Part shown: one piece after another, positions 5,017 to 62,546 of the stretch | How the letters are laid out: every line of letters begins with the position of its first letter | Position numbering within the stretch: position 1 is the first letter of the stretch | From: a virus | Lineage: Duplodnaviria; Heunggongvirae; Uroviricota; Caudoviricetes | Virus record (IMG/VR): IMGVR_UViG_2974563859_000001 | Strand: one strand, 5' to 3' | DNA length: 64,000 nt | The notes under the pieces: model-generated | What the model was told of the DNA's origin: nothing | Databases searched by the model: none | Seen by the model: the letters and a program-made list of their open reading frames with translations, nothing else | Program-made: the position numbers and the translations under genes

Positions 5017-5024
5017 TGCTATAA

Positions 5025-5059
5025 GAGTAAAGTCTATAAAAGACTTTACTCTTTTTTTT
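5025..5059 (+). terminator. rho-independent terminator
   Basis: gagtaaagtct-ataaa-agactttactc followed by a T8 run. Confidence 0.6.
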
Positions 5060-5060
5060 G

Positions 5061-5240
5061 TTAATAACGTTTGATATCTAATAATAAGTATTGATTATTT
5101 TTATAAAGAAAATTTGAATACTGTTTTACTTTAAAACCAAATCTTTGTAATAGCCAGCAAGGGAAAGAAATAATAAACATTAACAAAATTAGTATAATTA
5201 ACAATAGTCCTTCCAATAAATTTATCTTAAAACCCCACAT
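5061..5240 (-). CDS. small hydrophobic membrane protein (about 59 aa)
   Basis: RBS ggagga; MWGFKINLLEGLLLIILILLMFIISFPCWLL... Confidence 0.3.
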   Translation of the reverse strand: MWGFKINLLEGLLLIILILLMFIISFPCWLLQRFGFKVKQYSNFLYKNNQYLLLDIKRY

Positions 5241-5251
5241 AGAAATCCTCC

Positions 5252-5413
5252 TTATTCTCTAGTTAGAGAATAAATTGCTTGTATTGCTTCATTCCCAATT
5301 TGACGAGAGTTTCGTCCCATTTGGTCTAACATATTCTTCTTTTCCCATATTAATCGTTCTGCTTCTTCATTAGCTTCTTTACTAAATACTCCACGTAGAG
5401 ATACTGTATCACC
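5252..5413 (-). CDS. RNA polymerase beta-prime N-terminal gene, last exon (GDTVSLRGVFSKEANEEAERLIW...YSLTRE*)
   Basis: Aligns to E. coli beta-prime [22 protein letters not shown]...LGLYYMTR. It has no start codon. It lies directly downstream of a td-like intron 3' end (...gaagattttG|ggtgat). Confidence 0.6.
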   Translation of the reverse strand, partial: GDTVSLRGVFSKEANEEAERLIWEKKNMLDQMGRNSRQIGNEAIQAIYSLTRE

Positions 5414-7303: not shown

Positions 7304-7489
7304 ATCGTAGTCTCCGCCTAAAGCCTTTAAATAACCATTATAAGGAATTACTGTATCAACAAAAAGTTCATCCTCTGCGGGATAGTCAGGGTATATAACA
7401 GGATAATCAGGTAAGTATCTATCTTCCAGCTTTTGAGGTCGTGTTTCCTTTGTTGAAAGAATTCTTATTTTACTTGGATAAATATTCTA
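7304..7489 (-). CDS. RNA polymerase beta-prime N-terminal gene, internal exon (...IPYNGYLKALGGDYD)
   Basis: No ATG/GTG/TTG in frame. Ends in the DYD of the universally conserved NADFDGD motif. The 5' boundary is approximate. Confidence 0.45.
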
Positions 7490-9032
7490 TAGTGATAGGT
7501 AAAGATTTGATTTTATCTCCTCTTTTTCCCCCACTTCACACCCTACGTGCGACTTTCATCGCATAAGGCGTTCCATCAATTTAATAAAAATTTTTTAATA
7601 AGAATTGGTATACTATCGATTGGTGTATCATATTTAATTCTAAGAATTGGTAAATTATATTTCTTACAAAAATCATTTTTAATATTATCATGTTTTTGTA
7701 TTAATTCTAATTTTTTAATACGGTCATTTTCATCGTTACCAAAGATAGGAAGAAAATGTTGTCTACCATCATATTCTATTATAGCATTAAATTCCTCTAC
7801 AAAAAAATCAAAAGGTAAGGGTTTTCTATCTTTACATTCTTTAAAAGTTTTTTGATAGGTATATTCTGTTCCCATATTATTTAAAATATTTTTTATTAAT
7901 AATTCCCCACTACTCATTTTACAGTTTTTACATGAAAATTTATTAGATGTAATATTTTTTAATGAAAATTTATTAATAGTATTACACTCTAAATGTATTA
8001 TTTCTAATGGAGTTACATTATTTATATACTCACCAATCACTTTATACTCATTAGGATTTATTTTGTCTAACTGTTCTTGAACATATTCTTTATTTTTCTT
8101 AATAAGTCCTGAACAGTTAGGACAACGTCTCCCTAGAGATGTAAAATTTCCTGCTTTGACTTCATAAATGAATTTACATTTATTATGACGCATTGTTACC
8201 TTAGAATGATAATTTTTATAATTAGACAAAACAGTATATTCATCTTTTACTAATTCCTTAACCTTATTGATAAATTTTTCTGTAGTTAACTTTTCTTTTG
8301 AATTACAATGAGGACATCCATAACCCTGTAATAAGTTACAAGGTCTTGCCTCAAATTCTTTATTACAAATTTCATGTAATATTAAAATTTTTGTTTTAGA
8401 ATTAATATATTCACCAATTCGTTTGTAACCTTTTAGTATTTGATTTAGTCTTAAATCAAATGAAGTATTATCCAATTTTCTCATTAAAATCACTCCACAT
8501 AACTATTTATTATTATGTTTTGTGATTGTTCGATTATTTTTATTAAACTGACTATGACCCTTCGCTCCAATGGAGTTACCCATCTTCATAACTACTATGG
8601 TCTGCTGACTTTCTATATAAGAGTATCAACTATAATTTCTCTTATATAGAATCTCTGACGTTCCGTAAATGATAGTATAGCTATAACTTAGATGCCTTCT
8701 GCCCTATATAAACTTCTATTGTACCACACTTTACAATCAGGTCGTTCACCAGTACCGTATTACTAAACCCTGAATTTATATAGTATAAAAAGGTTCGTGT
8801 TCCTCATCATATTATAGCACCGCCCACCCTATCTATTAGTATTATAGTACTACTAATATTCAGATGACTTCACCTAACTTCATACAAATATTTTATATAG
8901 TTTAAAATAGATGCATGTAGGAGTATTAGCGACAAGTCTTCAATGAAAATGGTCATATCTTTTACTTGTTCTCATTTACAGTTTAGATTATAAAATCTAC
9001 TCCATTTCACATTAAATGCTTATAGGAGAACG
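7490..9032 (-). other. intervening sequence (putative intron of a different class) containing homing endonuclease ORF 7576..8493
   Basis: The beta-prime frame is broken by a stop at 9033-9035 and resumes at about 7489 without a start codon. The 540-nt segment at 8494-9032 is GC-richer and hairpin-rich. It lacks the td-like core blocks. Confidence 0.3.
7576..8493 (-). CDS. homing endonuclease paralog (zinc-finger modules + EDxHD/Vsr-like, IIEYDGRQH)
   Basis: Same architecture as 5739..7223. Confidence 0.6.
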   Translation of the reverse strand: MILMRKLDNTSFDLRLNQILKGYKRIGEYINSKTKILILHEICNKEFEARPCNLLQGYGCPHCNSKEKLTTEKFINKVKELVKDEYTVLSNYKNYHSKVTMRHNKCKFIYEVKAGNFTSLGRRCPNCSGLIKKNKEYVQEQLDKINPNEYKVIGEYINNVTPLEIIHLECNTINKFSLKNITSNKFSCKNCKMSSGELLIKNILNNMGTEYTYQKTFKECKDRKPLPFDFFVEEFNAIIEYDGRQHFLPIFGNDENDRIKKLELIQKHDNIKNDFCKKYNLPILRIKYDTPIDSIPILIKKFLLN

Positions 9033-34318: not shown

Positions 34319-36051
34319 GTATACTCAAAGACTAAATTTCCACAATCCCAAATTCTATCATAACCAGCTTCTCTCATAATTTGAATTTCTGTTTTATCAT
34401 TACTATAAATTTCTGGAAATAATTCTTTTAATCTTTGTTTTCTATAGTTGTATCTATGTGAAAGACTCAATTTATTTTTATTAAAATACCAATAATTTGG
34501 CTGAGAGTTATGCATAAAGTGAAAGCTATTTTTATGATATACATTTCCTTCTGACCATCTTAAATCAGCATATGTTATGATTTTATTCCAATCATAATTC
34601 TTTTTAAAATAACTGAATAATTTTCCAAAACTACCTATTACATTATAGTCTCTTTCTGTAGCAAATCTACTTAATTCATAGTCATATTTATTCCCTTTTT
34701 GCCCTAAGCTAACTCTAGGTTTACAGAATGTCATTACTGCTACTAACTCATCACCCTCATTCCTTGGATACCATAGTCCCAGTTTAATAGTAGAGTTATC
34801 AGATCCTTGAATATGATTTTTATCTAAAAAATCTCTTTTCACATTATTCTGAATTTCTTCTATATAACATTTTCTAGCATATATTTTTTCTCCATTATTT
34901 AAACCTAAAATATGTTTTATCTTTCCCTTTATAAGTTCTTTATTATCAATCCACTCATTCTCAAATAAATGAATTAATCTTATACCCTTTTCATTACATT
35001 TTTTCAATTTATTTAAATGGTAGTTTCTATCTTTTCCTTGAGATTCACCATGCCAATATAAACCGTTATATTCAATTGCTATTTTCTTTGAAGGTATATA
35101 AATATCCAGTTCTAAACCTTCAAGTATTTTTCTGTCTGATAGAATTACATTAGTGCTATTGGGGAGAATTTGTTTAATATAATCATATAATTCAATCTCA
35201 TCTTTTGAATTATGTTTCTTTAGTTGACATCTAGGACAATCTCTTTTAACTTTTTTACCTCTTGAATTACCATGTAAAATATCGACCGGTCTAACCTCCC
35301 AAGAATAGCCACATGAATGCTCAATAACTATTGGAGTTTTATTATTAATATATCTACTCTTAATTGTATAATCATTACTATTAAATATTCTATAAAAATC
35401 TTCTTTAAAACCATTAGATCCTTTATTTTTTGGATTTTTATTACATATATTACACCTTTTTCTTTTTAGGAAATTAGTTGGTGTAATAAAGAAATTATGA
35501 GAATCACTAGTATTGTGTCTCATCTCAATTTTATCTTGAGAGCTAATATATTCTCCTAATACAGTATATTCATCTCCTACTAAATCATACACTTCTTTAA
35601 TAAACATTTCAGTAGTCTTTGTCTTTTTCCTTTTTATTAGTTTCTTAGTACAATCAGGACATCTTGAACCCTTACTGAGAAAGTCATTAGGTCTTTTTTT
35701 AAACTCCTTATTACAGATGTTATGTCTAAGTAATACTAGTTTAGAACTATTAATATATTCTCCTAATACAGTATATTCATCTCCTACTAAATCATACACT
35801 TCTTTAATAAACATTTCAGTAGTCTTATTTTTTCTTTTAGATATTCTCTCTGATTTATGTAAAGGACATCTATTACCTGCATTTAAAAAGCCATTTGGTG
35901 AGACATAGTATTCATGACTGCACTTTTCATGTTTCATTTTTATTTTATTATTAGTTCCAGTATATTCTCCTAATACAGTATATTCATCTCCTACTAAATC
36001 ATACACTTCTTTAATAAACATTTCAGTAGTCTTTTTAGGCAAAACAATCAT
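34288..36051 (-). CDS. free-standing homing endonuclease paralog (three zinc-finger modules + EDxHD/Vsr-like nuclease)
   Basis: Three near-identical modules: KTTEMFIKEVYDLVGDEYTVLGEY...CP.C. C-terminal IAIEYNGLYWHGE. Confidence 0.65.
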   Translation of the reverse strand: MIVLPKKTTEMFIKEVYDLVGDEYTVLGEYTGTNNKIKMKHEKCSHEYYVSPNGFLNAGNRCPLHKSERISKRKNKTTEMFIKEVYDLVGDEYTVLGEYINSSKLVLLRHNICNKEFKKRPNDFLSKGSRCPDCTKKLIKRKKTKTTEMFIKEVYDLVGDEYTVLGEYISSQDKIEMRHNTSDSHNFFITPTNFLKRKRCNICNKNPKNKGSNGFKEDFYRIFNSNDYTIKSRYINNKTPIVIEHSCGYSWEVRPVDILHGNSRGKKVKRDCPRCQLKKHNSKDEIELYDYIKQILPNSTNVILSDRKILEGLELDIYIPSKKIAIEYNGLYWHGESQGKDRNYHLNKLKKCNEKGIRLIHLFENEWIDNKELIKGKIKHILGLNNGEKIYARKCYIEEIQNNVKRDFLDKNHIQGSDNSTIKLGLWYPRNEGDELVAVMTFCKPRVSLGQKGNKYDYELSRFATERDYNVIGSFGKLFSYFKKNYDWNKIITYADLRWSEGNVYHKNSFHFMHNSQPNYWYFNKNKLSLSHRYNYRKQRLKELFPEIYSNDKTEIQIMREAGYDRIWDCGNLVFEYTKKKIKDRDI

Positions 36052-37251: not shown

Positions 37252-37611
37252 CGTTAACTTCCATTAGATTCGCTACGTCTAATGCGTTCTCTTATGAACT
37301 GCTCTATATTTCTATAGAGACGAGACTATATCACTATCCTTATCTATTAAGGATAACCCCCATTTCCATTTAAGGGATTCTCACCCACTCCAATCGCTTG
37401 AGCCGTACTCCTATTGCGGAATTTCACCGCTACTCACAATCCTAAGATTGCTTTCGGATAGTCGTTGAACCTTCATTGTTATTTATAACAATGCTTGGAT
37501 GCTGATTGTCCATATATCCTTTAGATTGTTACACTTTGGTACTAAAGGCTTTAGGATTTTCCAGCAGTTAAAGGGTTTTGCTAGCAATATTACTACTACT
37601 AGGCACGAATC
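37252..37611 (-). mobile_element. group I intron (td-like, no ORF) in the beta gene
   Basis: ctttaactgctgg, caacgactatcc, gatatagtctcg and the tail ...gcgaatctaatggaagttaacG. Confidence 0.55.
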
Positions 37612-37788
37612 ATGCTTTTGCTGCGTTGTTTGCATTCCAACGCGCGGTGGGTCGGCATGACGAGCAGTAAAGGAGTTTAATAACTCTGCCGGACCATAGA
37701 TATTTGTCGTATTATTTTTTGTATTAGGATTGGTGTCTAAGAATCCTCGTGTGTTTTTGAATGCTGGATCAAAAGTTAACTGTCTAAC
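37612..37788 (-). CDS. RNA polymerase beta gene, exon 4 (VRQLTFDPAFKNTRGFLDT...FTARHADPPRVGMQTTQQKH)
   Basis: GC-rich island. GFLDT matches GFLET. ARHADPPRVGMQTTQQ matches EHDDANRALMGANMQRQ. Confidence 0.55.
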
Positions 37789-38837
37789 CCATTACCTTCA
37801 TATAGGTTCGCTACACCTATACCGTTCTCTTATGAACTGCTCTATGTTACCATAGAGATGAGACTATATCTTTATCTAGTCAAAAAAAAAGAAAGGAGAT
37901 GACTAGATATCTCCCATTTCCATTTAAGGGATTCTCACCCACTCCAATCGCTTGAGCCGTACTCCTATTGTGTGTTAACCACTAAAGGATAGTCGTTGAA
38001 CGTTACTCTCGTTATAATTAAAAATAATTTATAAAACCGTTTTTCTCAGCAATTTCTTTTCTAAAAGTAATTGCTAGTTCTTTAGCTTTTTCAAAACCAT
38101 ATTTATTAACTGCAAATGTTTTAATAAATTTTTTATGATTAACACGGATTTCAGATTCCCATCTATTTTTCTTTTTAGAATATCTTATTCCTTTAATTCC
38201 AGAAGTATTATCGTTTCTTAGTGATGTATTTCTATTATTCATCATTTGAGAAACCTCACGCAAATTACTTTTTCTATTATTTAAACTATTTCTATCTATA
38301 TGATCAATTACATTATTATTATCTTTAATATCCATTAGGTATCTATGAAGCTTTCCACCTGAATTACTTGAAATATAAAATGAATTATTTCTTTTAGACC
38401 AGATAGCTCTCCAAACATGCTTATTTATTTTATCAATATCTTCAATATCAATTTGAGATTTTACGATACCATATGTTTTTGAAAAAGTAACTAATAATGC
38501 ATGATCATCTAATACTTCAATAAAATTATATGCTCTTTTTCCTTCTTTTAATGTTTTCATAGCTATACGCTCACTATAATCTCCATATAAAACTTCTGAA
38601 TAATGTGCAAGGGAATTTGATTTCTTTTCTTTATTATAGAAACTTACTCTCCATAATTTTTGTTCTTTTAGATATATTATTTTATTTTTTTCCATAATAG
38701 TAGCTCTCCTTTTTAACTTACTACTATTATAATATATATTTAACGAGAGTCTTCGATACGGATTGTCCTATTATTAGGAGTTTCCCGTAGTTAGAGAGAT
38801 TTTATCATTATATATCACTATATAAGGGGGCAGTTTA
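37789..38837 (-). mobile_element. group I intron with HNH-AP2 homing endonuclease (38018..38695) inserted in a stem-loop
   Basis: Stem ctctcgtt/aacgagag flanks the ORF. The td-like 3' core lies at 37789-38010. Confidence 0.5.
38018..38695 (-). CDS. HNH homing endonuclease with C-terminal AP2 DNA-binding domain
   Basis: IDHIDRNSLNNRKSNLREVS (HNH) and GIRYSKKKNRWESEIRVNHKK (AP2). RBS aaggagagc. Promoter-like motif on the minus strand at 38728-38741. Confidence 0.7.
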   Translation of the reverse strand: MEKNKIIYLKEQKLWRVSFYNKEKKSNSLAHYSEVLYGDYSERIAMKTLKEGKRAYNFIEVLDDHALLVTFSKTYGIVKSQIDIEDIDKINKHVWRAIWSKRNNSFYISSNSGGKLHRYLMDIKDNNNVIDHIDRNSLNNRKSNLREVSQMMNNRNTSLRNDNTSGIKGIRYSKKKNRWESEIRVNHKKFIKTFAVNKYGFEKAKELAITFRKEIAEKNGFINYF

Positions 38838-38852
38838 ATTCACCCCAACTTT
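38838..38852 (-). CDS. RNA polymerase beta gene, proposed 15-nt micro-exon (KVGVN)
   Basis: Lies between a td-like intron 3' end (...ggaagataatG) and the next intron, which starts taa after an exon T. It restores the conserved (I/V)GL(I/V)N segment. Confidence 0.35.
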
Positions 38853-39187
38853 CATTATCTTCCACTAGATTCGCTACATCTAATGCGTTCTCTTATGAAC
38901 TGCTTCATGTTACCATGAAGATGAGACTATATCATCATCCTATTAGGATGCCTCCCATTTCCAACTCCAATCGCTTGAGTTGTACTCTACTCCCTTCCTT
39001 CTAACTAGCGTTATCACAACGATCTGTTAGAGTGGTTTCGATAGTCGTTGAACCTTACTCTAATGAGTCTTGGATGCTGATTGTCCTTAAAGGATTTTCC
39101 AGCAGTTAAAGAGGTTTACTTATAATATTTCTATTATAAGGGACTATTATAAATCTTGTCTGGGAATTCAAGAATTATAATAATTCA
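38853..39187 (-). mobile_element. group I intron (td-like, no ORF)
   Basis: Complete core: ctttaactgctgg, caacgactatcg, gatatagtctca and the tail gtagcgaatctagtgg. Confidence 0.5.
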
Positions 39188-39265
39188 ATCCGAGTCGGGT
39201 GTTGACATTGCCATGATTCCACGCATACTAGGGTCATAAGCCCGAATATCAGTTGTATAAGCATC
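39188..39265 (-). CDS. RNA polymerase beta gene, proposed 78-nt micro-exon (DAYTTDIRAYDPSMRGIMAMSTPDSD)
   Basis: STPDS matches the universal ETPEG motif. Flanked by a td-like 3' end (...gaaggaaaacG) and a 5' exon-T|tga junction. Confidence 0.45.
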
Positions 39266-39649
39266 CGTTTTCCTTCATATAGGTTCGCTACACCTATACC
39301 GTTCCTTAGAACTGCTCTAAGTTTCCCTAGAGACGAGACTATATCATCACTTAAAAGTGCCTCCCATTTCCAGCCTCAATCGCTTAGACTGTACTCTACT
39401 CCCTTCCACTAACTAGCATTATTGTAATGATCTGTTAGAGTGGTTTCGATAGTCGTTGAACCTTTACCTTATTACAAATAATTTGTAACTTAGGTACTTG
39501 GTTGCTTATGATTACCCAATCCTTTAAATTTTTACCATACCTGAATTGTTATATTCAGCCATCTATTATGTTTCCATATAGATTTGGTATTAAAGGCTCT
39601 AAGGGTTTTCCAGCAGTTAAAGAGGTTTTAATTGGACTAAAACACTTTA
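39266..39649 (-). mobile_element. group I intron (td-like, no ORF)
   Basis: Begins taaagtgttttaGTCCAATtaaaacctctttaactgctgg. IGS gtccaa pairs the exon end ttggaT. Confidence 0.55.
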
Positions 39650-42445
39650 ATCCAAGTTCCTTCCTGAAAGCCCCTTGTAAGTAGCCGCACCACCCTTTTC
39701 AATTTCCAAAGAAGGGTTAAGGACACTATATTCATCGACAGTAGGTGAATTCATTAATGTCTTTAATAGAATATCCTGTGGAACAGACATCTTAATAGGA
39801 TTACCAGCTTTCAGTGTATCCTTATACGTTTTAAATGAATCTGCCAAGATTTTATACAAGTAGGCGTTTACTTGCTCAGTACCACGGATTCGATATGAAT
39901 TCATATCATTCAGTGGACTATAGCTCATATCTTCCAATAAGGTATTCGCATACAACAATATGTCATAGATATTCTCAGGTAATTCTAACTGTTTCAGTAC
40001 ATCTAATGTGATAGGATCAACCATTAGAGATAGAGTATTATGGAGACCTTTACCCATATTTCTGCTACCAAACATCTCATAGAAAGTTTCAATATAAGGA
40101 TCTTTAGAGTTCATTTCTTCAAATGTATACTCTTCAGTAGCCATAGTACTTAGACCACTTAATAATAAGGAATTTCTCAATAAAGAATTATTATAATATA
40201 GGTATCCATCTTTAAAACGGATCTTATCATAGTCATCATCAATTGTAATTCTCTTATTCTTAGTATCAAAGCTATATTCAATATTATATCTTTCTAATAA
40301 ATCTTCTAATCCTAATTCATATCCAAGAAGAACCACTAAAGGAATCATTCTATTATTAATACGAACTCGGTTATATGCTAGAGACTTAGAATTACTTAAA
40401 GAAGATAATTTTTTATAAGCTTCCTCACTAAGTGAAGTAACAACAACTTTAATAATGAGTTCTGAAAGACTCATATCAGTATTTTCTTGTTTCTTATTAT
40501 TAATCAGATAAACTCTTTTACTTGAACGCTTAAGAGCAATAACATTTTCATTATCTTTTGTATGACCGATTGGTAAGAATTGTTTATCATCAATATTAAT
40601 CTTAGCAAGCTTAGCCATATTATCAAGATCACTTTTCAATAAATCTTCTACTTCTTTTTGACTGAACATAAGTTTATATTCATCATTCTCTAAGCTTAGA
40701 AGGAAGGAAGAGATTTCATTATATTCAAGAGTTGTTTCATATCCCTCATTAATTGTTAGAGCGTTACCTAGACGATAATTAAACTTCTTACCTGATACTT
40801 TAAATTCATTTAGATCCATACCAAAAAGCTTCTTAAGTTTCTCAGTTTTATGAGATAGCTTAGAACCAAAGCGCATGACAAAAAACTTATTGTAGTTAGT
40901 AGTAATCTGAACTTCATCAGGTTTTGTTTTTACAATGGGTAAAGATAGAATTTGCTTAAGAATTAATTTTTTACCACCATTAATATTCATAAACCTACCA
41001 TCTCTGATAATAGGATAATCAAATTTAACAGTATGCTTTACATTACGATCATCTTGGAAAGTAACAGTGTAAGTTAATTTCTTTGATAAATCAGTAGATG
41101 TGTCTTCTGTTTTAATATCACTTACAAATAATTTAACATCGCTATCTCCATTAAATGATGAAAGAACTGCAACTAAGTCTTTTTTCATCTGTTTCTCAAA
41201 GTAGCTCATATCAAAATCTTTAAGATTTGAATATCTAGTTTCTTCTTGAATAACATTTGTATTGGTAATTGGCTTTCGGTCAATACTTGTTGATTTAAAA
41301 TCATCAATAATATCTTGAATATTAATATCATCAAGAGTAACTTGTTTTTGTTTTTCTTTTAGGCGTTCAAGAGTCTTTCTCTGTTTAATTTCATCTCCAC
41401 CAGTAGACTGAAGCTCTTTAAGAGTTGAAACATCAGCTTTTAATTCCTTACTGTTATTTAAGATATCAATGATTTCATCTTCACTTTTATCAAGAATATC
41501 TTCATCACTTGAATCAATAGCTTTTTCAATATCATCACCAATCTTATCAGTAACTTCAATTGCACTACTGGATAATTTTGTATTTCCATCAATTTGGAAA
41601 TTACTTAATAATTTTTCTTTAACTTTTTCAGATTTTTCTTTTACTAATGCATCTCTCTTGTTTTCTGTTTCTTGAGTTGCATCTTCTTTACCTAAAGGTT
41701 TTTCATCATTATTAGTCCTCTGATGATTTGCTGTTTTAATAAGAATATTTAATGCATTAAGGAATCTATTTGCAAGAAGATTAGAAAGTTCATCATTAAT
41801 ATTGAATTTAATAAATGTATTATTAACTGTAGTATAAAAAATAAAGTCTACATTCTTAAGCTCTTTCTTCTGTTCCTCTGTTAACAACTTTCTTTTAATT
41901 GCCATATAGATATAAGCAAAAGGTGTTCTTGCATTATTTAAGTCAAAGAATGATGGATCAAGAACATTGTCAGGAACAGGAATTGCTACTGCTTTATTCT
42001 CATATGATGCGCCCTCTTTAATTTTAGATATAAGAAACTCAAAATACATTTCAACTCGTTTTCTTCCACGAACTTTAATCTCTACTTCATTCTCAAGATG
42101 CTCATTTGTAATATCATAGATCAAGTTAAGATCATTATAATTAGTTAAAGCACGTTTAGTATAAATAATACTGGAGCATTTTGCTTTTACCTCATCATAA
42201 TATTTCTTTTGATCTACAATAATTCTTTTATTCTTTTGAACAGTATTGAATGCTCTTGGAATATATACTCCTCTAAAAAAAGAAGGACTGAATATATTAG
42301 AATTAATAAAATCAAATATTTCACTTTGATTATTTCCTGAAAAGAAAATCAAATTTGAATTACGGTCATTTTTCCTTTTTTTAATGGATGAAAGTTTTAT
42401 ATTAGAGTACACTCTCAATTCCTTGAGATTATCAAGATAAAACAA
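39650..42445 (-). CDS. RNA polymerase beta N-terminal gene, exon 1 (TTG start)
   Basis: Ends ...NPSLEIEKGGAATYKGLSGRNLD, matching [20 protein letters not shown]. RBS aaggaagtggg. Confidence 0.6.
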
Positions 42446-54355: not shown

Positions 54356-57300
54356 ATGCCAATGAGAGTATTACCAAAATTCGTTAAGAATGTAGGTAGA
54401 TCACTTGGAAGATCAACAGCTTCAGCATTTGGTGATATGATGCCTAGTATGAAGAATTCAGGCATTGATAGTAAAAATTATATTGCTGAAGTATATAATT
54501 CTTCCAGAGAAAAAGTAACTCCTAATGAAGTTAAACAGACCTACATTTATAAATCTGGACAGCAATTAATTAATAATGCAATTAGAGATCTTAAATCAGG
54601 TAATTTCTATAATAAAGAAAGACAACAACAAGCATCTAATGATTCTTTCAAAGAGATGTTTGGTATTGATTTAGATAATCTTACTAATTTTGAAGATCAA
54701 AATAAAGAAACAACAAAAGAAAAAGATGGAAAAACTATTCACAATACCAGCAATAACACTCAACAAAATGTTTTTGTGAATAATAGTGATCCATCTACTT
54801 CTAAAAGCATTCAGCAATTAACAACTATTTCATCTTCAGCTATGAAGATGAGTCATTATAATTCTAGTGCTTTGAGTAAACAAATTTCTACATTAATTGA
54901 ATTCCAGCATAATAACACTAACAGATTCTATACAGAGATGTCAAGTAAAATGGCTGATATTACAAGAGATGTTAGTCAGATGACCGGATTCCTTGGTGTA
55001 ATGGCTGAGGTTTCAGTAGGTGGAACTAGAAGAACACAAGGCGAGTCCATGCTTGCAACATTATTAGGGTTAGAAGGATTTAGTGTTAGTGGAATGAAGG
55101 ATATGTATAGGAAAAAATATTCTAATTCTACTGGTGGAATGAAAGATACATTTAATCTTGTTATTAAACCTTATATTGATGAAGTTGTTGCAAATCCAAT
55201 TGGAGCTTTAACTAAAAATGCAATTAAGTTAGCTTTACCAAGAGCTTTAAAATCGGCTGTTGGTGATATGGATCAAATGTTTAAATTTCTTCCTACTATG
55301 ATCCAAGGAAAAGCTAAAGATTGGGAAGGTAGCGATAATGTCTTTAAGAGAAATGCCGCAAAAATATTTGGCATTGATCTAAAAGAAGATAAGGGATTTA
55401 ACTTTTCTAATTATGAAAAAGGAAAGGTAGCATTTGACGGTGTAACTAGACGTTCTATTGTTAATGTAATTCCATCATTGTTATCTAAAATTTTGGCTAG
55501 TGTTAGCAATAATTCAACTCATAAAGAAGAACTTATTTATGATTATGATAAAGGAAAATTTACTACTAGAAAACGTGTAATAAAAGAAATGAATAGTGAT
55601 ATTAAAAACTTCACTATTGATAACTACGATCTTACTAATTATAAAGAACAGATTGCAAGAGAGAATCAATCTAAATTTTCAAGCAGTGAAGAATTATCTG
55701 CTTTTATGGAAAGAGTTGATAAAGCTCTTTTATCCATGGTTAAAAATAGCAAAATGATTCATGGTAATAGCAAGGCATCTGATATTTCGGAGGACGAAGA
55801 TGTTGCTAATGCTATCTTAAATAACTTCAAGGGTCAAACAAATGCTAATAAGTCTAAATATCAATATGACCTGCTAAGTGCTTCAAAAGCTTATTCTGAT
55901 ATTTATAGAAGAATTGAGCAAAATGAATCATTCAATAATGCCTTTGATATGACAAAAGAAGAAAGAATATTTGAACCTGAAACTAATAAAGAAATGGCTA
56001 GAAGGGTAAAAACAAATATTGATAGATTCTTTGGCGTTGGTCAAGGTCCAGTAGAAAATAATATGAGTAAAAAGAATCCTCTTTATTGGTTAACTGAAGG
56101 TATCAAGAGAGTTAATGGAAAAACTTCTGAATTTTTTTATGGTCAGGATAATAATGAATATGCATATACTAGACCTCAACAACCTTCTTCTAATCAGCAA
56201 AATACAGTAAATAGAGGATCTAAGATAAGAGATTTTGCTAGTAGAGTAGTAAATACAGGAAGTAATGCTATTTCTAAATTAAATACAAGAAATGGTTTAA
56301 TGCCTGAGAGAAGAACTTCACCTTCAATTCCTGTTATTTCAAATACTGAGGATACTAGTAGTAACAATACAACAAGAGAATTAAGTAATTTAAATCAAAA
56401 TATCGAAGAAGTAAATAATGAAATTAGTGGAGATAGAGGTATCACCAGAAGTATCTTCCTGTTAAATAGAAATATTGAACGTAATAATAGGATTATGGAA
56501 GGTAGAAATGATGAGAAAACATCCTCTTCTACTAATTCAACTGCCATTAGAACTACGAATGTACAAAACCCAGATCTTTCCATTCTCCCTAAGATTAATG
56601 ATAATATTCTTCATATTATAGCATTACTAGAAGCTAAATTTAGTGGAGATGGCTTACCAGTAGGTAGGATTGGAAAATTCAAAAATATTATTGGTAGTTA
56701 TAAGGATAAAACTCTTAATTTCTTTGAAAAGTTATTTGGAAGAGGAAGATCTAATTCAGGAGGTTTCTTCTCTAGAACAGCAGAAAAAGTTAAAGGCTTT
56801 ATTGGAATGGTATTTGGTAATTCAGGTTCCAGAACTTCACTTTTATCTAAATTATTTGGTGGTGCAATGGATTCTATTAGAGGTGCTAATGGAAGACAAT
56901 CTATTACATCAAGACTTCTAGGAAGAGATGGCATTATCACCAAGTTTGTTTCTGGTACATTAACAACTGTTTTGGATGTTGCGTCTAAAACAATTCCAAA
57001 AGCAACTAAATTTGCAGGAGAGGTAACAAAAGGATTTTTAAATTTTGGTAAAAGTGCTTTTTCACTAATACTTGGAGCAGGTAAAAAAGGATTAGATAAA
57101 GCTAAAGAACTTCGATCAAATAGATCTGCAAGTAGAGCAGGAAGAAGCGGAAATAGAAATATTAAAGGAATGAGAGGCTTACTTGGTCTTTTAACAAGTA
57201 CTACTGGGAGTGTTATAGGAGGAGCAGGTAGCCTTATTGGTGGAAGCTTAAGCCTTGGTATGAGAGGCATTTCAAAAGTAGGAGATATCGCTTCAGGTAT

Positions 57301-60133
57301 TGGTAATAAACTATCTGGTCGTAAAGGGCATAAAAAAAGTAAATCTTCTTCTAATAGAAGATCTTTTTCAATGCCAGATATTATAGATAGAGTATTTAAT
57401 CGTAAAAGTGATTCACTGCATGTCTTTGTAGATGGCGGTTCTCTAGATAAAATCCGAGAAGTAGTTAAGGTTCAGACACATATTAGTGATGGAAACTCTG
57501 CAGTAGAACAAATTGCAGAGTTTAAAAAAAGACGTCAAAATAATGAAAATAGCCTTCTTCAAAACTTAAAAGGTGGTAGAAAGAAAAGAAATAGAAATAA
57601 CCTTACAGGTGAACAGTCTTCTGGTGGAGGTTTTTTAAGCGGAACACTGAGTAATATTGCAGGTGATATTATTGGTGAGGTAATTGGAAATAAAATTGCT
57701 GGACGTGGAGGAAGAGATACTGGTACTAGAGCTGGAAGAAGAGCTGGACGGAGAGGAATCTTTGGTAGAATTGGCGGTCTCTTTAATCGCAATAGAGGTG
57801 GTGCATCTGAAGCTATTGAAGGAGCAACTGATTTAGCACAAAACTCTACTAGAATGGGAAGAAATCAATCAACTGGACGAGGAATTAGAGGTATGTTCAG
57901 TCGAATTGGTGGAGGATTATCTCGTCTAGGTGGACGAGGAATGGCAGGAATTGGTGCTTTAGGTGCTGGTGCAGGATTGGCATCTGGGGGTGCTGGAGTT
58001 GCTCAAGCCGCAACTACAGGCGCATCAGCTACACAGGCGGCTACTACGGCGGCAGGTGCTAGTGGAGTAGCAGGATCGGCTTCTGGAGGCGCTAAAGGAC
58101 TTCTTAGAGGAGCCGGAACAGCACTTAGAGGGGCAGGTAGATTAGCAAAATTCATTCCGGGAGTAGGATTAGTTGCTACAGCAGGAATGGGTGTTATGGA
58201 TGCTATTAATGGCGTTCAGAACGCTAACCAAATATTTGGAACTGAAAAAGCTACTTTAGGACAAAAAGTATCTGCAGGAGCAGGTAGTGTTATAAGTGGA
58301 CTTACATTTGGTTTAGCTGATAAAGAAAAAGTTTCAAAAGGGATTTATGGATTTGGTAACAAGATTAAAGATTTTGGTTCAAAAGCATTAAGTACAGTTA
58401 AGAAAAATCCTTTATTACTCGCCGGAGGTATTGGTGGAGGATTAGGATTAGGTGCTTTAGGACTTTCTAAGATGTTTGGAAAAAAAGAGGATGAAGATCA
58501 AAAAAGAGATGCTGAAAAGGGAGAAAACAGTAAGCAACCTATTAATAAAATCTCTGCTTGGGTCGAAAAACTAGGTAAATTCTTCTCAATTGGTGCTGGT
58601 GGTACATTCTTTAGTGGTATCTGGGGAATGATTACTGGTAAAACAGGTGGTATCTTTGATAAGATTGGTAACTGGTTTAAAGGCTTATTTGGTGGAGGAA
58701 AAGATGATAGTAATTCAGGTGGCGATTCTTATACTGGTAAAATTGGTTCTGGTATTGGAGCACTAGCCGCTAAATATGAGTCTAGTGGTAATGCTGGAAC
58801 GGTAGCAAATAGTTCTGGTGATATTGGTGGGCAATCATTTGGTAAATATCAACTTGCAAGAAATACTGGGTCTTATAAATCTTTTATTAATAAGCTTAGT
58901 GATTATGGTCATGAAGATTGGGAAAAACAATTAAAATCAGCTTATAATAGTACCTCTCAAAGTGCGGCAGTGTGGAAGAAGATATATAAGGAAAATCCAA
59001 AAGAATTTGAAAAAGTTCAAGATCAATATTTTGCAGATCAATATTTTAGACCAGCGGCAGGTAAAATCAAATCTGCAATTGGTTTAGATGTTGGTAAACG
59101 TTCTACAGCTGTTCAAGCGGTATTATTATCTACTGCTGTTCAACATGGAACTGCTGGTGCTGTTAATGTTTGGAAGAATGCACTTGGTAGTAAAGCAAAT
59201 GATATGTCTGATTCTGAAATTATTAATGCAGTTTATAAAGAGCGTGCGGCTAATAATGGTATGAAATATTTCCCTAGTTCTTCTGCCGCTATTCGTAAAG
59301 GTGTTGTGAACCGATTCTCAAGAGAGAAAAAAGATGCATTAGCAATGTTAGCTAAAGATGGTGGAGAAAAAGCAAATACTTCATCTGATAGTGATAAAGA
59401 TACAAAAGATTCTTCATCAACAGGTTCAACAGCGTCTAAGGTTATGAATGATCGCAGTCAATTTTACGATAATCCATTTGACTCAGCTTCTTCAGGTGGA
59501 GGCTATACAAATAGTACAGCAGGTTATGACTCAGCTCCTTCTTCATCATATAAGAGTATTGGTGGATTTAGTCTTGGTTCATCTGCTGGAAAAGCATTAA
59601 CTTCTGGTTCTGCATATGTGGCAAATTTACTTTCAACATCTGATAAAGCAATGGGAGACTTAAGATGGTCAATTGGAAATAATACTATTTCTAAAGCGAA
59701 TAGTATTAAGAATAACTATCTAAATTCCAATTCTTCAAGTAATCCATTTTCTGCATTAGGAATTGGCACTGGAACAACATCAAATATTAAATCGACTGCA
59801 TCAAGTTCATTAGTAAGTCCATTAAGCTCTATTCCAAAACTTTCAAGTTCTTCTTCAGAAAGTAACACTGGAAGTACTATAACTGGAAATGATTTTACTG
59901 AAATGCTTAAGAACTCTGATGAAATTGCTCAAATGCAAAGTATTCTTAAACAAATTAATGAGAACAGCAAACAAGGAAATAGTATTCTGGCTAAGATGCT
60001 TGAAGCCATTATTGATATTAGAGATAATAAAAGTTTTGGTGGAACAACAGTAGTCAATAATACTTCTTCAGGTTCAAATTACAGTTCTTCAAGTATTTCT
60101 CCAGAGACAGATAGTATGTTAAAGGGTTATTAA
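54356..60133 (+). CDS. giant virion protein (1925 aa) with lytic transglycosylase (SLT) domain; putative tape-measure / ejection protein
   Basis: AAKYESSGNAGTVANSSGDIGGQSFGKYQL ... AYNSTSQSA (SLT ES...GxxQ...AYN motifs). Long Gly/Ser/Ala/Arg-rich low-complexity stretches. Confidence 0.65.
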   Translation: MPMRVLPKFVKNVGRSLGRSTASAFGDMMPSMKNSGIDSKNYIAEVYNSSREKVTPNEVKQTYIYKSGQQLINNAIRDLKSGNFYNKERQQQASNDSFKEMFGIDLDNLTNFEDQNKETTKEKDGKTIHNTSNNTQQNVFVNNSDPSTSKSIQQLTTISSSAMKMSHYNSSALSKQISTLIEFQHNNTNRFYTEMSSKMADITRDVSQMTGFLGVMAEVSVGGTRRTQGESMLATLLGLEGFSVSGMKDMYRKKYSNSTGGMKDTFNLVIKPYIDEVVANPIGALTKNAIKLALPRALKSAVGDMDQMFKFLPTMIQGKAKDWEGSDNVFKRNAAKIFGIDLKEDKGFNFSNYEKGKVAFDGVTRRSIVNVIPSLLSKILASVSNNSTHKEELIYDYDKGKFTTRKRVIKEMNSDIKNFTIDNYDLTNYKEQIARENQSKFSSSEELSAFMERVDKALLSMVKNSKMIHGNSKASDISEDEDVANAILNNFKGQTNANKSKYQYDLLSASKAYSDIYRRIEQNESFNNAFDMTKEERIFEPETNKEMARRVKTNIDRFFGVGQGPVENNMSKKNPLYWLTEGIKRVNGKTSEFFYGQDNNEYAYTRPQQPSSNQQNTVNRGSKIRDFASRVVNTGSNAISKLNTRNGLMPERRTSPSIPVISNTEDTSSNNTTRELSNLNQNIEEVNNEISGDRGITRSIFLLNRNIERNNRIMEGRNDEKTSSSTNSTAIRTTNVQNPDLSILPKINDNILHIIALLEAKFSGDGLPVGRIGKFKNIIGSYKDKTLNFFEKLFGRGRSNSGGFFSRTAEKVKGFIGMVFGNSGSRTSLLSKLFGGAMDSIRGANGRQSITSRLLGRDGIITKFVSGTLTTVLDVASKTIPKATKFAGEVTKGFLNFGKSAFSLILGAGKKGLDKAKELRSNRSASRAGRSGNRNIKGMRGLLGLLTSTTGSVIGGAGSLIGGSLSLGMRGISKVGDIASGIGNKLSGRKGHKKSKSSSNRRSFSMPDIIDRVFNRKSDSLHVFVDGGSLDKIREVVKVQTHISDGNSAVEQIAEFKKRRQNNENSLLQNLKGGRKKRNRNNLTGEQSSGGGFLSGTLSNIAGDIIGEVIGNKIAGRGGRDTGTRAGRRAGRRGIFGRIGGLFNRNRGGASEAIEGATDLAQNSTRMGRNQSTGRGIRGMFSRIGGGLSRLGGRGMAGIGALGAGAGLASGGAGVAQAATTGASATQAATTAAGASGVAGSASGGAKGLLRGAGTALRGAGRLAKFIPGVGLVATAGMGVMDAINGVQNANQIFGTEKATLGQKVSAGAGSVISGLTFGLADKEKVSKGIYGFGNKIKDFGSKALSTVKKNPLLLAGGIGGGLGLGALGLSKMFGKKEDEDQKRDAEKGENSKQPINKISAWVEKLGKFFSIGAGGTFFSGIWGMITGKTGGIFDKIGNWFKGLFGGGKDDSNSGGDSYTGKIGSGIGALAAKYESSGNAGTVANSSGDIGGQSFGKYQLARNTGSYKSFINKLSDYGHEDWEKQLKSAYNSTSQSAAVWKKIYKENPKEFEKVQDQYFADQYFRPAAGKIKSAIGLDVGKRSTAVQAVLLSTAVQHGTAGAVNVWKNALGSKANDMSDSEIINAVYKERAANNGMKYFPSSSAAIRKGVVNRFSREKKDALAMLAKDGGEKANTSSDSDKDTKDSSSTGSTASKVMNDRSQFYDNPFDSASSGGGYTNSTAGYDSAPSSSYKSIGGFSLGSSAGKALTSGSAYVANLLSTSDKAMGDLRWSIGNNTISKANSIKNNYLNSNSSSNPFSALGIGTGTTSNIKSTASSSLVSPLSSIPKLSSSSSESNTGSTITGNDFTEMLKNSDEIAQMQSILKQINENSKQGNSILAKMLEAIIDIRDNKSFGGTTVVNNTSSGSNYSSSSISPETDSMLKGY

Positions 60134-60150: not shown

Positions 60151-61176
60151 ATGGCAGATGAACAGCAAAACGTTGATGAACAACAGTCACAGATAATTGG
60201 AGATGAGTTTTTCCAAGAAGGTAACTCTAATTCAGATTCAAAAGGTGGATTTGGAACAAGTGTAGAATATACTGATGGTTTTGAAGCGTTAATTGGATCT
60301 TCTAAGGGTGGTTCTGGTTCTTATGCTACACCTACATGGAATCCATATAAATCAGATAGTGTATTAGGCTTACCTTTATACTACAATGATTTAGCGGATC
60401 CTTCGGGAAGAGTATACAATCAAACCATTATTCAAGATATTCCTAATATATACATGGTTCCCGGAATTCCATCTATTAATAGAAATATGATTGACGTAGC
60501 AGGAAAACGTATTATTCCTGCTACTCTTTCTCGTGCATTAATGGATTTTCAAAATAATCCAAATAGTATTTTTAATTTTGGAGTTAGAGGAGTAAAAAGT
60601 GGTAATGACCTTCGTTTCATAGGGTTTAAAGCAGATTATTCTGAATACTTTAAATATGTACAAACTATGTTAAGTACTATACATTCATATATGGCAATGG
60701 ATGGCATATTTGATTTATATAGATTCTCAGATGACTTTAATAATAGTTTTAAAAATTATGGATTATGTTTTTATGCAGATAAATCTACAACTATTTCTGA
60801 GTCAGCTGATAATACTTATGCGGCTTCTAGAACAGCAGAAATGGTAAGTGAGAAAGCGGCTACTTTAAGGGAAGCAGATTTATTATATCCTACAGGAAGT
60901 ACAACATCTCGTATTGTTGACTCAATTAAAGCGGCTAATCCAATTGGTGTACTAGAATCATTAGGTTCATTTGATGGAATTATCACTCGTACATCAAATG
61001 CATTATTTCGTGTTGTAAATGGATCACAATTAATGTTCCCTGACTTTTGGCAAGATTCTAGATTTGATAAATCTTATAATATTAGTTTCAAATTTTATAG
61101 TCCTTATGGTGATAGAGAAAGTATATTTAGATACGTGTATGTACCTTTTATAGCACTATTAGCATTAGCATTGCCT
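60151..61176 (+). CDS. virion structural protein gene, exon 1
   Basis: The ORF ends at a T followed by intron-initial taa. Intron IGS gggcaat pairs the exon end attgccT. Confidence 0.55.
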
Positions 61177-61617
61177 TAAATGACGGGGCAATTAAAACTC
61201 TTTTAACTGCTGGAACATCCTTAGAGCTTATTAGACTACAACGTGACTGGTGACAGTGAGCGTGAATGTTTAAAAACTAATAAGATTGGACAATCAGCAA
61301 CTAGTTAAAACTTCCACATGGAAGTTACTAGCTCAACGACTATCGAAACCACATCATTTGATGGAAGGAAGTAGAGTACCCCACAAGCGTGGTTACATTT
61401 AGGCATAAATGTAAGTATAGTAAACTAATACTATATGGGAAACAAAGAGCATGATGAAGGCAAAAAGCTGGAGTGAAGATATAGTCTCAACTTCTATGGA
61501 AACATAGAGCATGATGAAGGCAAAAAGCTGGAGTGAAGATATAGTCTCAACTTCTATGGAAACATAGAGCAGTTCATAAGAGAACGCACTGAAGTAGCGA
61601 CTCAGTGGAAGGTTATG
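61177..61617 (+). mobile_element. group I intron 1 (td-like, no ORF) with internal 60-nt tandem duplication
   Basis: taaatgacGGGGCAATtaaaactcttttaactgctgg ... caacgactatcg ... gaagatatagtctca ... gcgactcagtggaaggttatG. Confidence 0.55.
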
Positions 61618-61677
61618 CGTCAAGACGGTTTATTAGGATATCAGCAACCATTCTTTGTAAGAATGTCTCGTCCGGGT
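61618..61677 (+). CDS. proposed 60-nt mini-exon (RQDGLLGYQQPFFVRMSRPG)
   Basis: Open frame between the intron 1 3' end and the intron 2 start (exon ...ccgggT|taactaaatagctcgg; IGS gctcgg pairs ccgggt). Confidence 0.4.
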
Positions 61678-62159
61678 TAACTAAATAGCTCGGCTTATGA
61701 GTAATCATAAGAAACAATCATTCTCTAATTGCTGGAAAGTCTTAACATGTTGTGATGAAGATAATCAGCAGCGAAGATTATTAGTTTTAGATTGTGTAAT
61801 AAAAAATTATATCAATAGTAAAATAAACAAAATAATATAAAAATAATTATTGTAAGATTAATAATATTCCACTTTTAAGAATACCATATAAATATAGGGA
61901 TACTGTTGATATAATTCTAGAAGACTTCTTTACTAATAATAACGTTCAACGACTATCCGAAAGTAATCGTTAGATTATGAGTAGCCTAAAAATAGGCAAT
62001 AGGAGTACGGCTCAAGTGTTTGGAGTGGGTGAAAATCCCTTAAATGGAAACGGGAATCCCCTCTTTAGAGAGGGTGAAGATATAGTCTCATCTCTATGGA
62101 AACATAGAGCAGTTCATAAGAGAACGCATTAGATGTAGCGAATCTAATGGAAGATAATG
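61678..62159 (+). mobile_element. group I intron 2 (td-like, no ORF)
   Basis: caacgactatccgaaag ... ggagtacggctcaag ... gaagatatagtctcatctctatggaaacatagagcagttcataagagaacgcattagatgtagcgaatctaatggaagataatG. Confidence 0.55.
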
Positions 62160-62546
62160 TATTTTGACATAGATATGGGAGTAGTAACAAGCTTGACTAT
62201 TACTAAAGGCGGAGCTGATAGTCTTTGGACAGTTGACGGTCATCCGCAAATGATTGAAGTTAATATGAACGTAGTAGATTTATATCCGCAAATGATTCAA
62301 ATTAAAGATATTGGTTTACTTGCTTATAATTTGGGAATTGCATCATTCTTAGAAAATATGGCAGGAATAAGACCAGACCAATTAAGTTTTCTTAAATTTA
62401 AATCATTAATTAATAGAAAACTATCAAATTCATTATTGTTTACTACTTTCCTTGATGGAGGTTCAGGAATTAAAGATAGAGTTGGTAATAAATTTGCTGA
62501 CTTCTTCTATGAACTACAAGGTAAGTTTAATAATATATTAAGATAA
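62160..62546 (+). CDS. virion structural protein gene, exon 3 (YFDIDMGVVTSL...)
   Basis: In frame with exon 1 and the mini-exon after removal of both introns. Confidence 0.5.
   Translation, partial: YFDIDMGVVTSLTITKGGADSLWTVDGHPQMIEVNMNVVDLYPQMIQIKDIGLLAYNLGIASFLENMAGIRPDQLSFLKFKSLINRKLSNSLLFTTFLDGGSGIKDRVGNKFADFFYELQGKFNNILR

Follow-up and report, generated by a model that had tools for sequence, protein, structure and literature searches.

The stretch between positions 60151 and 62546 of the window analysed here (64,000 nt of the Bacillus jumbo phage PBS1; the features of this locus lie on its plus strand) is very probably one baseplate-protein gene, split by two self-splicing group I introns that flank a 60-nt exon and have lost their endonucleases by deletion. 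This finding is already known: in the record of phage AR9, these three exons are joined as one coding sequence whose product (YP_009283109.1) is identical. We propose that this late gene yields a 490-aa baseplate protein, a homolog of the phiKZ gp182 'spacer'. In PBS1, the most conserved segment of the gene is interrupted by two paralogous IA-type group I introns, with 60 nt between their insertion sites. Transcription would start at a late promoter near 59981, after which each intron would fold. In P1, the last exon bases would pair with an internal guide and form a U.G pair at the splice site, while the next exon would be aligned by P10. Two transesterifications, as we infer for splicing in vivo, would then release each intron up to and including its terminal G and leave the three exons joined in frame. 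Both introns formerly carried a homing-endonuclease gene of a family found elsewhere in the PBS1 genome. Since this gene was lost by internal deletion, the PBS1 and AR9 introns are now immobile passengers, which presumably must still splice for the baseplate to be assembled.

Gene structure and the encoded protein

Exon 1 (60151-61176; 1026 nt, 342 codons) ends in the U of the P1 U.G pair and is followed by intron 1 (61177-61617; 441 nt), whose last base is the terminal guanosine G61617. The mini-exon, exon 2 (61618-61677), comprises 60 nt or 20 codons (RQDGLLGYQQPFFVRMSRPG), intron 2 (61678-62159; 482 nt) likewise closes with a guanosine, G62159, at its 3' splice site, and exon 3 (62160-62546; 387 nt) supplies 128 codons plus the stop. 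The spliced ORF encodes 490 aa with a single terminal stop, and the predicted splice junctions fall in the protein at ...ALALP/RQDG... and ...SRPG/YFDI.... The exon/intron boundaries, frames and sequences given in the original prediction were all exact when recomputed on the window. Its claim that the three pieces are in frame is borne out by the 490-aa ORF and by intron-less alleles that encode exactly the predicted protein; these alleles, together with the joined coding sequence of AR9, also uphold the proposed 60-nt in-frame mini-exon between two group I introns.

The AR9 gene, gp204 (YP_009283109.1 / AMS01289.1), is recorded as a three-piece joined coding sequence for a 'virion protein' (Lavysh et al. 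2016 genome record). AR9 is 99.5% identical to PBS1 and carries both introns at the same sites, and its spliced protein is 100% identical, but its intron 1 lacks a 60-nt duplication found here and its exons differ at 10 synonymous positions. The RefSeq name gp204 corresponds to g205 of the AR9 authors, and the annotation of Staphylococcus phage Machias uses this AR9 gene as its exon-boundary reference. In the abstract of the AR9 genome paper, the intervening sequences are reportedly described as demonstrated self-splicing introns of groups I and II.

As had been noted, the gene follows that of a giant virion protein (54356..60133; 1925 aa, with a VgrG3-like C-terminal/lysin domain), which provides syntenic context. 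The primary transcription start site lies within the 3' end of this upstream gene at 59981, 170 nt 5' of the ATG; it was placed by mapping the primary start at AR9 172936 (AR9 Table S3; sequence ...caaggaaatA) onto the window. RNA-seq of AR9 documents late expression of the gene, rising from 1.6 to 237 to 1425 FPKM. At 40 min, the AR9 intron 2 ORFs stood 2.4- and 3.8-fold above the host gene, a comparison in which the basis of the host-gene FPKM is not given; this excess is only suggestive, though it would fit the accumulation of excised intron RNA.

A Pfam search of the host protein returned no match. The protein matches phrog_20401, a 'virion structural protein', with E=8e-279, and phiKZ gp182 (9xqs_K) over residues 205-405 (phmmer, E=1.4e-13). 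In phiKZ, gp182 forms the baseplate 'spacer', a hexameric beta-barrel ring with the tube initiator on one side and the hub on the other (PDB 9xqs; PMC13250141). Judged by its sequence, the PBS1 protein is a homolog of this spacer, and it would presumably serve in the PBS1 baseplate as well. The suggestion that the product is 'probably structural' thus gains from two sides, namely this homology and the AR9 designation of a virion protein. Gene order is also alike, with the gene lying directly after that of a giant lysin-domain tail protein in PBS1/AR9 and in Machias; the phiKZ neighbour, gp181, we take to be the tail lysin. The PBS1 protein, known here by sequence, differs from gp182 in length (490 vs 664 aa). 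The mini-exon belongs to the best-conserved block of the protein, and the alignments with gp182 and the Machias homolog run through both junctions without gaps.

Intron cores and splice-site pairings

The proposed pairing of the guide gggcaat with attgccT was recovered as an intron 1 P1 of 7 bp (AUUGCCU/GGGCAAU) with a terminal U.G; the internal guide sequence occupies 61186-61192 and is preceded by the P10 guide (61181-61185), which pairs at 5/5 positions (CGUCA/UGACG). Intron 2 has a 6-bp P1 (CCGGGU/GCUCGG), also with a terminal U.G, and a 5/5-bp P10 (UAUUU/AAAUA), with its internal guide at 61688-61693 and its P10 guide at 61683-61687. In shuffled intron heads, P1 together with P10 arose 15 times (intron 1) and 484 times (intron 2) per 200,000. 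Against Rfam RF00028, intron 1 scored 56.1 bits, above the gathering score of 50 (E=1.5e-11, whole window), and intron 2 scored 47.7 bits, 2.3 below it, in a full-length match (model 1-253; E=1.1e-10, local search). Intron 2 is also 83.8% identical over 228 nt to a paralog at 37302-37621 that scores 81.5 bits. A group I core stands in both introns beside P1, P10 and the terminal G, as the original prediction had claimed.

P4, P6 and P7 (GACUAU/AUAGUC) were located in both introns. Intron 1 has P3 at 61198-61203 with 61444-61449, assigned by family homology and covariation, P4 at 61208-61213 with 61294-61299, and P7 at 61338-61343 with either 61481-61486 or 61541-61546; its P8 is weak, at ~3 bp. 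The corresponding helices of intron 2 are P2 (61694-61700 with 61705-61711), P3 (61720-61725 with 62052-62057), P4 (61730-61735 with 61765-61770), P7 (61951-61956 with 62082-62087) and P8 (62059-62064 with 62069-62074). Rfam places P3'/P8 of intron 1 around 61373; we rejected this position in favour of 61444-61449 based on homology among six paralogs, across which P3 covaries. P9, P9.1 and P9.2 are 99.2% paired over seven paralogs, with 8 of the 18 pairs compensatory, while slid controls reached at most 48%. The stretch from GACUAU to P3', at the position of P7.1/P7.2, measures ~100 nt in intron 1, where RNAfold predicted four local hairpins, and ~95 nt in intron 2, where it was judged by inspection. 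The 3' ends of the two introns are 88.5% identical.

The introns had been called 'td-like', which is correct in the sense of phage IA-type only. Like T4 td and other phage IA2 introns, with td known here by description, they have a P1 with U.G, a P10, hairpins at the P7.1/P7.2 position and the conserved J8/7-P7 sequence GAAGAUAUAGUC, and in their intact versions a peripheral loop houses a homing-endonuclease ORF. The PBS1-family endonuclease, however, is not the GIY-YIG enzyme I-TevI of td, and it is deleted in PBS1. Among the 40 of 500 blastn matches listed, the introns matched those of Staphylococcus, Lactococcus, Brochothrix, Enterococcus, Vibrio and other phages, and no T4 record was seen. 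The nearest sequence kin among these matches are introns of Staphylococcus K/Twort-like phages, whose core sequences are related, and of other Firmicutes phages.

Alleles, endonuclease remnants and a duplication in intron 1

Three PBS1-like DNA contigs from two metagenome samples have the same neighbouring genes and an uninterrupted gene that encodes exactly the predicted 490 aa. Exact 490-aa copies in Logan/ENA were considered as assemblies of spliced mRNA, a reading we rejected, as they are DNA contigs of intron-less phages. In Goe21, intron 2 is precisely absent (junction CCGGGA|TATTTT); the empty form of site 1 reads ACTTCCC|CGACAGG. An uninterrupted homolog, BpSp gp264, covers residues 1-490 at 71.6% identity, and the homologs in BpSp, Staphylococcus jumbo phages, Yersinia phiR1-37 and phiKZ are single proteins across both junctions. 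Among the tblastn matches, interruptions occur only in PBS1-like phages, at the two sites, and in Machias, at one other site, where Rfam found no intron.

Seven alleles encode one and the same protein, and 33 sites vary among them. Of these sites, the only ones to follow the presence of intron 1 are the P1 bases 1021, 1023 and 1026 and the P10 base 1029; the presence of intron 2 is followed by the splice-site U (1086). In alleles that lack the respective intron, the splice-site U is replaced by C or A. Near site 1, ERZ777002 and PBS1 differ with marked clustering, 6 of their 15 differences being within 15 nt of the site (P=5e-9). The exact tracking of intron presence by these synonymous P1 and P10 exon bases is in effect a genetic test, provided by natural variation, that confirms the pairings.

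In compact form, the natural variants of the locus line up as a series through the life cycle of homing introns, at two sites separated by 60 nt. Both sites are empty in the metagenomic genomes and in BpSp, Goe21 carries intron 1 with its endonuclease only, and Internexus carries both introns with endonucleases; both introns remain with the endonucleases deleted in AR9 and PBS1, and the PBS1 sequence analysed here adds a core duplication. In intron 1, a deletion of ~939 nt removed the endonuclease gene still present in Internexus and Goe21; its scar is the P6a hairpin CUUCC-ACAU-GGAAG (61311..61324), and the last 18 codons of the ORF remain in PBS1/AR9. Intron 2 retains codons 1-47 (61697..61840), 100% identical to Internexus_87, and codons 258-301 plus the stop (61839..61973), the latter out of frame with the former owing to a 628-nt deletion between AAATAA microhomologies. 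AR9 annotates the N-terminal remnant as a hypothetical protein. Next to the intact ORFs of Internexus and Goe21, only remnants, and no intact homing endonuclease, were found in the PBS1/AR9 introns. The sequence comparison identifies both introns as deletion derivatives of endonuclease-bearing introns. Their description as 'ORF-less' consequently holds in function only, because the ends of the endonuclease genes remain in both. The endonuclease matches phrog_559, with weak, sub-threshold Pfam matches to DUF4379 and DUF2726, and would be EDxHD/Vsr-like if grouped with the AR9/PBS1-type phage intron endonucleases of PMC12350094.

Intron 1 also contains a perfect 2 x 60-nt tandem duplication (61451-61510 and 61511-61570) that covers P8, J8/7, P7' and P9 and is bounded by 14-nt repeats, GGAAACAWAGAGCA, at 61438, 61498 and 61558. 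Comparison of the alleles places it only in NC_043027/MF360957; AR9, the PBS1 sequence LC680884, Internexus and Goe21 are without it, and intron 1 accordingly measures 441 nt here vs 381 nt in AR9 and LC680884. A second, partial Rfam match lies at 61534-61567. The duplication gives intron 1 of this assembly two competing P8-P7'-P9 modules. The original prediction had passed over both the duplication and the endonuclease-gene remnants.

Alternative readings and related systems

In four of the five public records, the locus appears as separate genes (PBS1 RefSeq, as 96, 97 and 98; LC680884; Internexus; Goe21), in keeping with a 342-aa protein that stops at TAA 61177 and a separate 129-aa protein that starts at ATG 62157, an in-frame codon with a weak GGAAG motif 5 nt upstream. 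We regard such a set of three independent genes as almost certainly mistaken. The ATG (62157-62159) consists of the last three bases of intron 2 and the TAA likewise belongs to an intron, and both are absent from the intron-less alleles, which encode a continuous 490-aa protein, just as the homologs in BpSp, Staphylococcus jumbo phages, Yersinia phiR1-37 and phiKZ run through both junctions. Separate genes would moreover leave the 20 mini-exon codons as unexplained conserved non-coding sequence. The RefSeq division into genes 96, 97 and 98 is wrong, and the practical value of our analysis lies mainly in annotation: PBS1 RefSeq, LC680884, Internexus and Goe21 show this single baseplate gene as two to four 'genes', and in AR9 debris of the endonuclease genes is entered under hypothetical proteins.

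Two further readings were also weighed. Joining exon 1 to exon 3 would also preserve the frame, as the mini-exon is a multiple of three, and would give a 470-aa isoform without its 20 aa; the 88.5%-identical 3' ends of the introns could favour such a product, and group I introns are documented to cause exon skipping in Twort orf142 and in 47% of SIOphi polymerase transcripts. An exon-skipped mRNA beside the full one is nevertheless decidedly unlikely, as only 3 of the 5 positions of the intron 1 P10 guide, two of them as G.U, pair with the first bases of exon 3, and no part of the protein is better conserved than the segment that would be skipped. That skipping, regulated or stochastic, supplies the phage with 490- and 470-aa spacer isoforms, in a ratio that the duplicated P8-P7'-P9 could shift, is by analogy conceivable and very improbable. 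The duplication itself might cripple intron 1, leaving a pseudogene or a poorly expressed gene, or it might be an artefact of sequencing or assembly; its confinement to NC_043027/MF360957, when the independent LC680884 is without it, and the alternative folds that doubled core elements allow both point in this direction. We consider this unlikely. In the unduplicated intron the 14-nt repeats are exactly 60 nt apart, a natural route for slippage, and an assembler would not create the duplication out of 14-nt repeats. Either copy completes the core, and if copy 1 is used the additional 60 nt come to lie between P9 and P9.1, where insertions are tolerated. Furthermore, the phage stock that was sequenced was viable, and conservation of the host gene extends across the phiKZ-like jumbo phages found here.

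A gene split in this way has parallels in other phages. The tail tube gene of Twort, orf142, contains three group I introns and undergoes exon skipping (Landthaler & Shub 1999, as reported in PMC11878797); here too, several close-set group I introns and short internal exons are combined in a gene for a tail or structural protein of a Firmicutes myovirus. It is a different gene with other insertion sites, however, and skipping, shown in Twort, is disfavoured by P10 in PBS1. The locus leaves the current understanding of group I introns unchanged; it is one of the less common cases in which introns of a phage lie in a structural gene and not in a gene of DNA metabolism. Deletion derivatives are described for the group I intron of the Streptococcus thermophilus phage lysin gene (Foley et al. 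2000, as reported in PMC11878797), where, according to that account, a single site is empty, occupied by the intron with its ORF, or occupied by an internally deleted intron. By comparison with the same account, the PBS1-type series differs in being repeated at each of two adjacent sites in a jumbo-phage baseplate gene.

Exon structure and intron-less alleles of the virion protein gene

The segment 60151-62546 (+) matches Bacillus phage PBS1 (NC_043027/MF360957) at 100% identity and phage AR9 at 99.5%; by their database records, both belong to the genus Takahashivirus and are jumbo phages with uracil-containing DNA. Exon 1 (60151-61176, +, 1026 nt) ends in a T followed by TAA, the first three bases of intron 1 (61177-61617, +, 441 nt, final base G). 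Exon 2, a mini-exon of 60 nt (RQDGLLGYQQPFFVRMSRPG; 61618-61677, +), again ends in T before a TAA; intron 2 (61678-62159, +, 482 nt, final base G) and exon 3 (62160-62546, +) follow. The joined exons are open over 490 codons, as expected from the original prediction that all pieces are in frame, and its exon and intron coordinates were all right, with sequence reading, ORF listing and scripted cutting in agreement.

An exact look-up of the 490-aa conceptual product in NCBI returned the AR9 'virion protein' (YP_009283109.1/AMS01289.1), whose CDS is joined from three pieces, and the annotators therefore used the same junctions. The three-exon gene is already known, as the identical gene has been in the AR9 record since 2016 and serves as the reference in the annotation note of Staphylococcus phage Machias. 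Whereas the exons are joined in AR9, four other public records (NC_043027, LC680884, MW749003 and OM728297) give 2-4 separate genes. Our analysis adds the correction of these four annotations to a single gene, empty-site alleles and an endonuclease-deletion history for both introns, a strain-specific core duplication in intron 1, and the assignment of the host protein to the gp182 spacer family.

Exactly the same protein is encoded by an uninterrupted gene in PBS1-like DNA contigs from a food-fermentation metagenome (50 kb, with a further 3.9-kb Logan contig of that run) and in a second ENA assembly (188 kb). Each uninterrupted contig has the giant VgrG3-like gene upstream and the RusA gene downstream, as in PBS1. 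In the PBS1-like phage Goe21, intron 1 is present and intron 2 is absent, with exons 2 and 3 contiguous (CCGGGA followed directly by TATTTT). One identical protein is specified by all seven PBS1-like alleles, and phage BpSp has an uninterrupted homolog (gp264, residues 1-490, 71.6% identity). The three separate genes of the PBS1 RefSeq record (96, 97 and 98) are an untenable reading of the locus: both the stop at 61177 and the ATG at 62157 belong to intron sequence and are missing from the empty alleles.

The CDS varies at 33 positions. Perfect agreement with the presence of intron 1 is confined to P1 bases 1021, 1023 and 1026 and P10 base 1029, and position 1086, the splice-site U of intron 2, tracks the presence of that intron. 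Between the ERZ777002 allele and PBS1, 6 of the 15 differences lie within 15 nt of the intron 1 insertion site (P=5e-9), a clustering to be expected from P1/P10 constraint, from homing co-conversion or from the two together.

Structure and family of the two group I introns

With the Rfam group I model, intron 1 scored 56.1 bits, above the gathering score of 50, and intron 2 scored 47.7 bits, just below it, in a match that spans the whole model (local search, E=1e-10). The splice-site helices of both are canonical, with the P10 guide directly 5' of the P1 guide. Intron 1 has the P1 helix AUUGCCU/GGGCAAU, 7 bp ending in U.G and foreseen from the pairing of the guide gggcaat with attgccT, and the P10 helix CGUCA/UGACG; intron 2 has CCGGGU/GCUCGG, likewise ending in U.G, as P1 and UAUUU/AAAUA as P10. 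Comparable P1 and P10 pairings arose in 15 (intron 1) and 484 (intron 2) of 200,000 shuffled intron heads. The P1/P10 helices and empty alleles support the predicted pair of group I introns around a 60-nt mini-exon.

Since the Rfam model ends at P9, the 3' tails of both introns and five paralogs from the window were aligned separately. Across the seven tails, 99.2% of the cells of P9, P9.1 and P9.2 are paired (slid controls, <=48%), with compensatory changes in 8 of 18 pairs; because this pairing holds, the terminal G keeps a constant distance to a structured tail that is conserved. The introns are 88.5% identical to each other across their last 87 nt, and the tail CAGUUCAUAAGAGAACGCA...GUAGCGA...GGAAG...G is common to them and other group I introns of the window. 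P3 of intron 1 (CUCUUU, 61198-61203, with P3' AAAGAG, 61444-61449) was placed by homology to six paralogs and covaries across the family.

About 95-100 nt separate the P7 5' strand from P3' in both introns, a segment that is an IA hallmark and for which RNAfold predicts four hairpins in intron 1. The earlier description 'td-like' is acceptable only as a loose name for the phage IA2 type. Among the best 40 of 500 matches, the nearest non-Takahashivirus sequences are intron cores of Staphylococcus K/Twort-like phages (e.g. lysK), and further related cores come from Lactococcus, Brochothrix, Enterococcus and Vibrio phages.

Elsewhere in the window, a 2.4-kb stretch of an RNA polymerase beta-subunit gene (37302-39692, -; PBS1 genes 78-80) holds four group I introns (Rfam 51.7-102.4 bits) and, between them, an HNH endonuclease gene; the intron spacing makes short internal exons probable in this polymerase gene too. 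A further group I intron lies at 5464-5775 (-) and a group II intron at 7489-8986 (-; D1-D4 at 8813-8986, D5/D6 at 7489-7573), the latter apparently the one described for AR9/PBS1 (PMC12350094).

Deletions and a duplication within the introns

In the PBS1-like phage Internexus the same two introns measure 1318 and 1111 nt, each with a 301-341-aa endonuclease ORF, and Goe21 intron 1 (1321 nt) also carries one. PBS1 intron 1 corresponds to Internexus positions 1-140 and 1080-1318, with the entire P6a loop gone and a hairpin, CUUCC-ACAU-GGAAG (61311-61324), left at P6a; intron 2 corresponds to positions 1-160 and 789-1111, with a 628-nt deletion between AAATAA microhomologies. Both are internal-deletion derivatives of such endonuclease-bearing introns. 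As a result of the 628-nt deletion, intron 2 keeps endonuclease codons 1-47 (61697-61840, +; a hypothetical protein in AR9) and 258-301 (61839-61973, +) mutually out of frame, and 'ORF-less', as the introns had been called, is not simply so.

The Internexus and Goe21 endonucleases match phrog_559 and phrog_9084 (PHROGs) and, weakly, the Pfam DUF4379 zinc-finger and DUF2726. Paralogs with 30-37% identity lie on the minus strand of the window (~7630-8427, 6393-7214 and 35209-36051), one of them between the two group II intron matches, and might, in principle, serve the introns without an endonuclease in trans. In AR9/PBS1-type phages, group II intron endonucleases are reported to be homologous to proteins encoded within each genome's own group I introns and were placed in an EDxHD/Vsr-like outgroup (PMC12350094), to which the ORFs of introns 1 and 2 may belong.

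The original prediction gave the boundaries of intron 1 correctly and overlooked a perfect 60-nt tandem duplication inside it (61451-61510 and 61511-61570), which was not found in AR9, the independent PBS1 sequence LC680884, Internexus or Goe21. With P3' at 61444-61449, the duplicated unit is exactly P8, J8/7, P7' and P9, and either copy leaves a complete group I core. Repeats of 14 nt (GGAAACAWAGAGCA) lie exactly 60 nt from one another in the intron without the duplication, and in the PBS1 assembly such direct repeats, at 61438, 61498 and 61558, bound the duplication; they are a natural slippage substrate that explains it, and the duplication is probably real.

Expression, splicing and the host protein

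The AR9 authors' g205 is the host gene (PMC5312081 tables; RefSeq gp numbers are shifted by one, so that gp204 is g205). Its primary transcription start, 170 nt upstream, maps to 59981 (AR9 tables), and its expression is late, at 1.6, 237 and 1425 FPKM at 5, 20 and 40 min (Table S4, PMC5312081). Two small ORFs in intron 2 (61697-62132) reach 3410 and 5481 FPKM at 40 min, from 0 at 5 min (Table S4, PMC5312081), 2.4- and 3.8-fold above the host gene at 40 min. This excess would fit a build-up of stable excised intron RNA and is only suggestive, the FPKM counting model being unstated in the tables.

We are highly confident that these are two degenerate, no-longer-mobile IA-type group I introns that undergo ordinary cis-splicing: a late baseplate-gene transcript would be made and both introns, presumably catalytic in vivo, would be removed from it in cis. 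Joining exon 1 directly to exon 3 would also keep the frame, and such skipping has precedents in Twort orf142 and in the SIOphi polymerase (PMC11878797). It is disfavoured here by the poor pairing between the intron 1 guide and exon 3 and by the high conservation of the mini-exon.

The host protein had been thought probably structural, a view borne out by phrog_20401 'virion structural protein' (E=8e-279, PHROGs), the AR9 name and homology to phiKZ gp182; a Pfam search of it gave no match. Among PDB sequences its best match is phiKZ gp182 (9xqs_K, E=1.4e-13, residues 205-405), and the alignment is ungapped over both exon junctions, with the mini-exon in the best-conserved block, LPR..G...Y..PF. 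In the phiKZ structural atlas (PMC13250141), gp182 forms the 'spacer' ring of the central baseplate, a hexamer whose 24-stranded beta-barrel sits between tube initiator gp88 and hub gp101, which suggests a baseplate role in PBS1. The host gene of PBS1, AR9 and Machias lies directly 3' of the gene for a giant tail protein with a lysin domain, and homologs occur in 242 phage records, mostly of phiKZ-like jumbo phages.

The Machias homolog is interrupted elsewhere, at PBS1 residue 299/300, by ~1.64 kb (Machias 4649-6290); an Rfam search of this segment gave no group I or II match, and it carries a TnpB/CasX-like 'transposase'. Chains homologous to the host protein bear conflicting depositor names in the PDB: phiKZ gp182 ('spacer' in the paper), 'Tail tube initiator complex protein gp203' (11lx_H) and 'Capsid decorator gp77' (36za).
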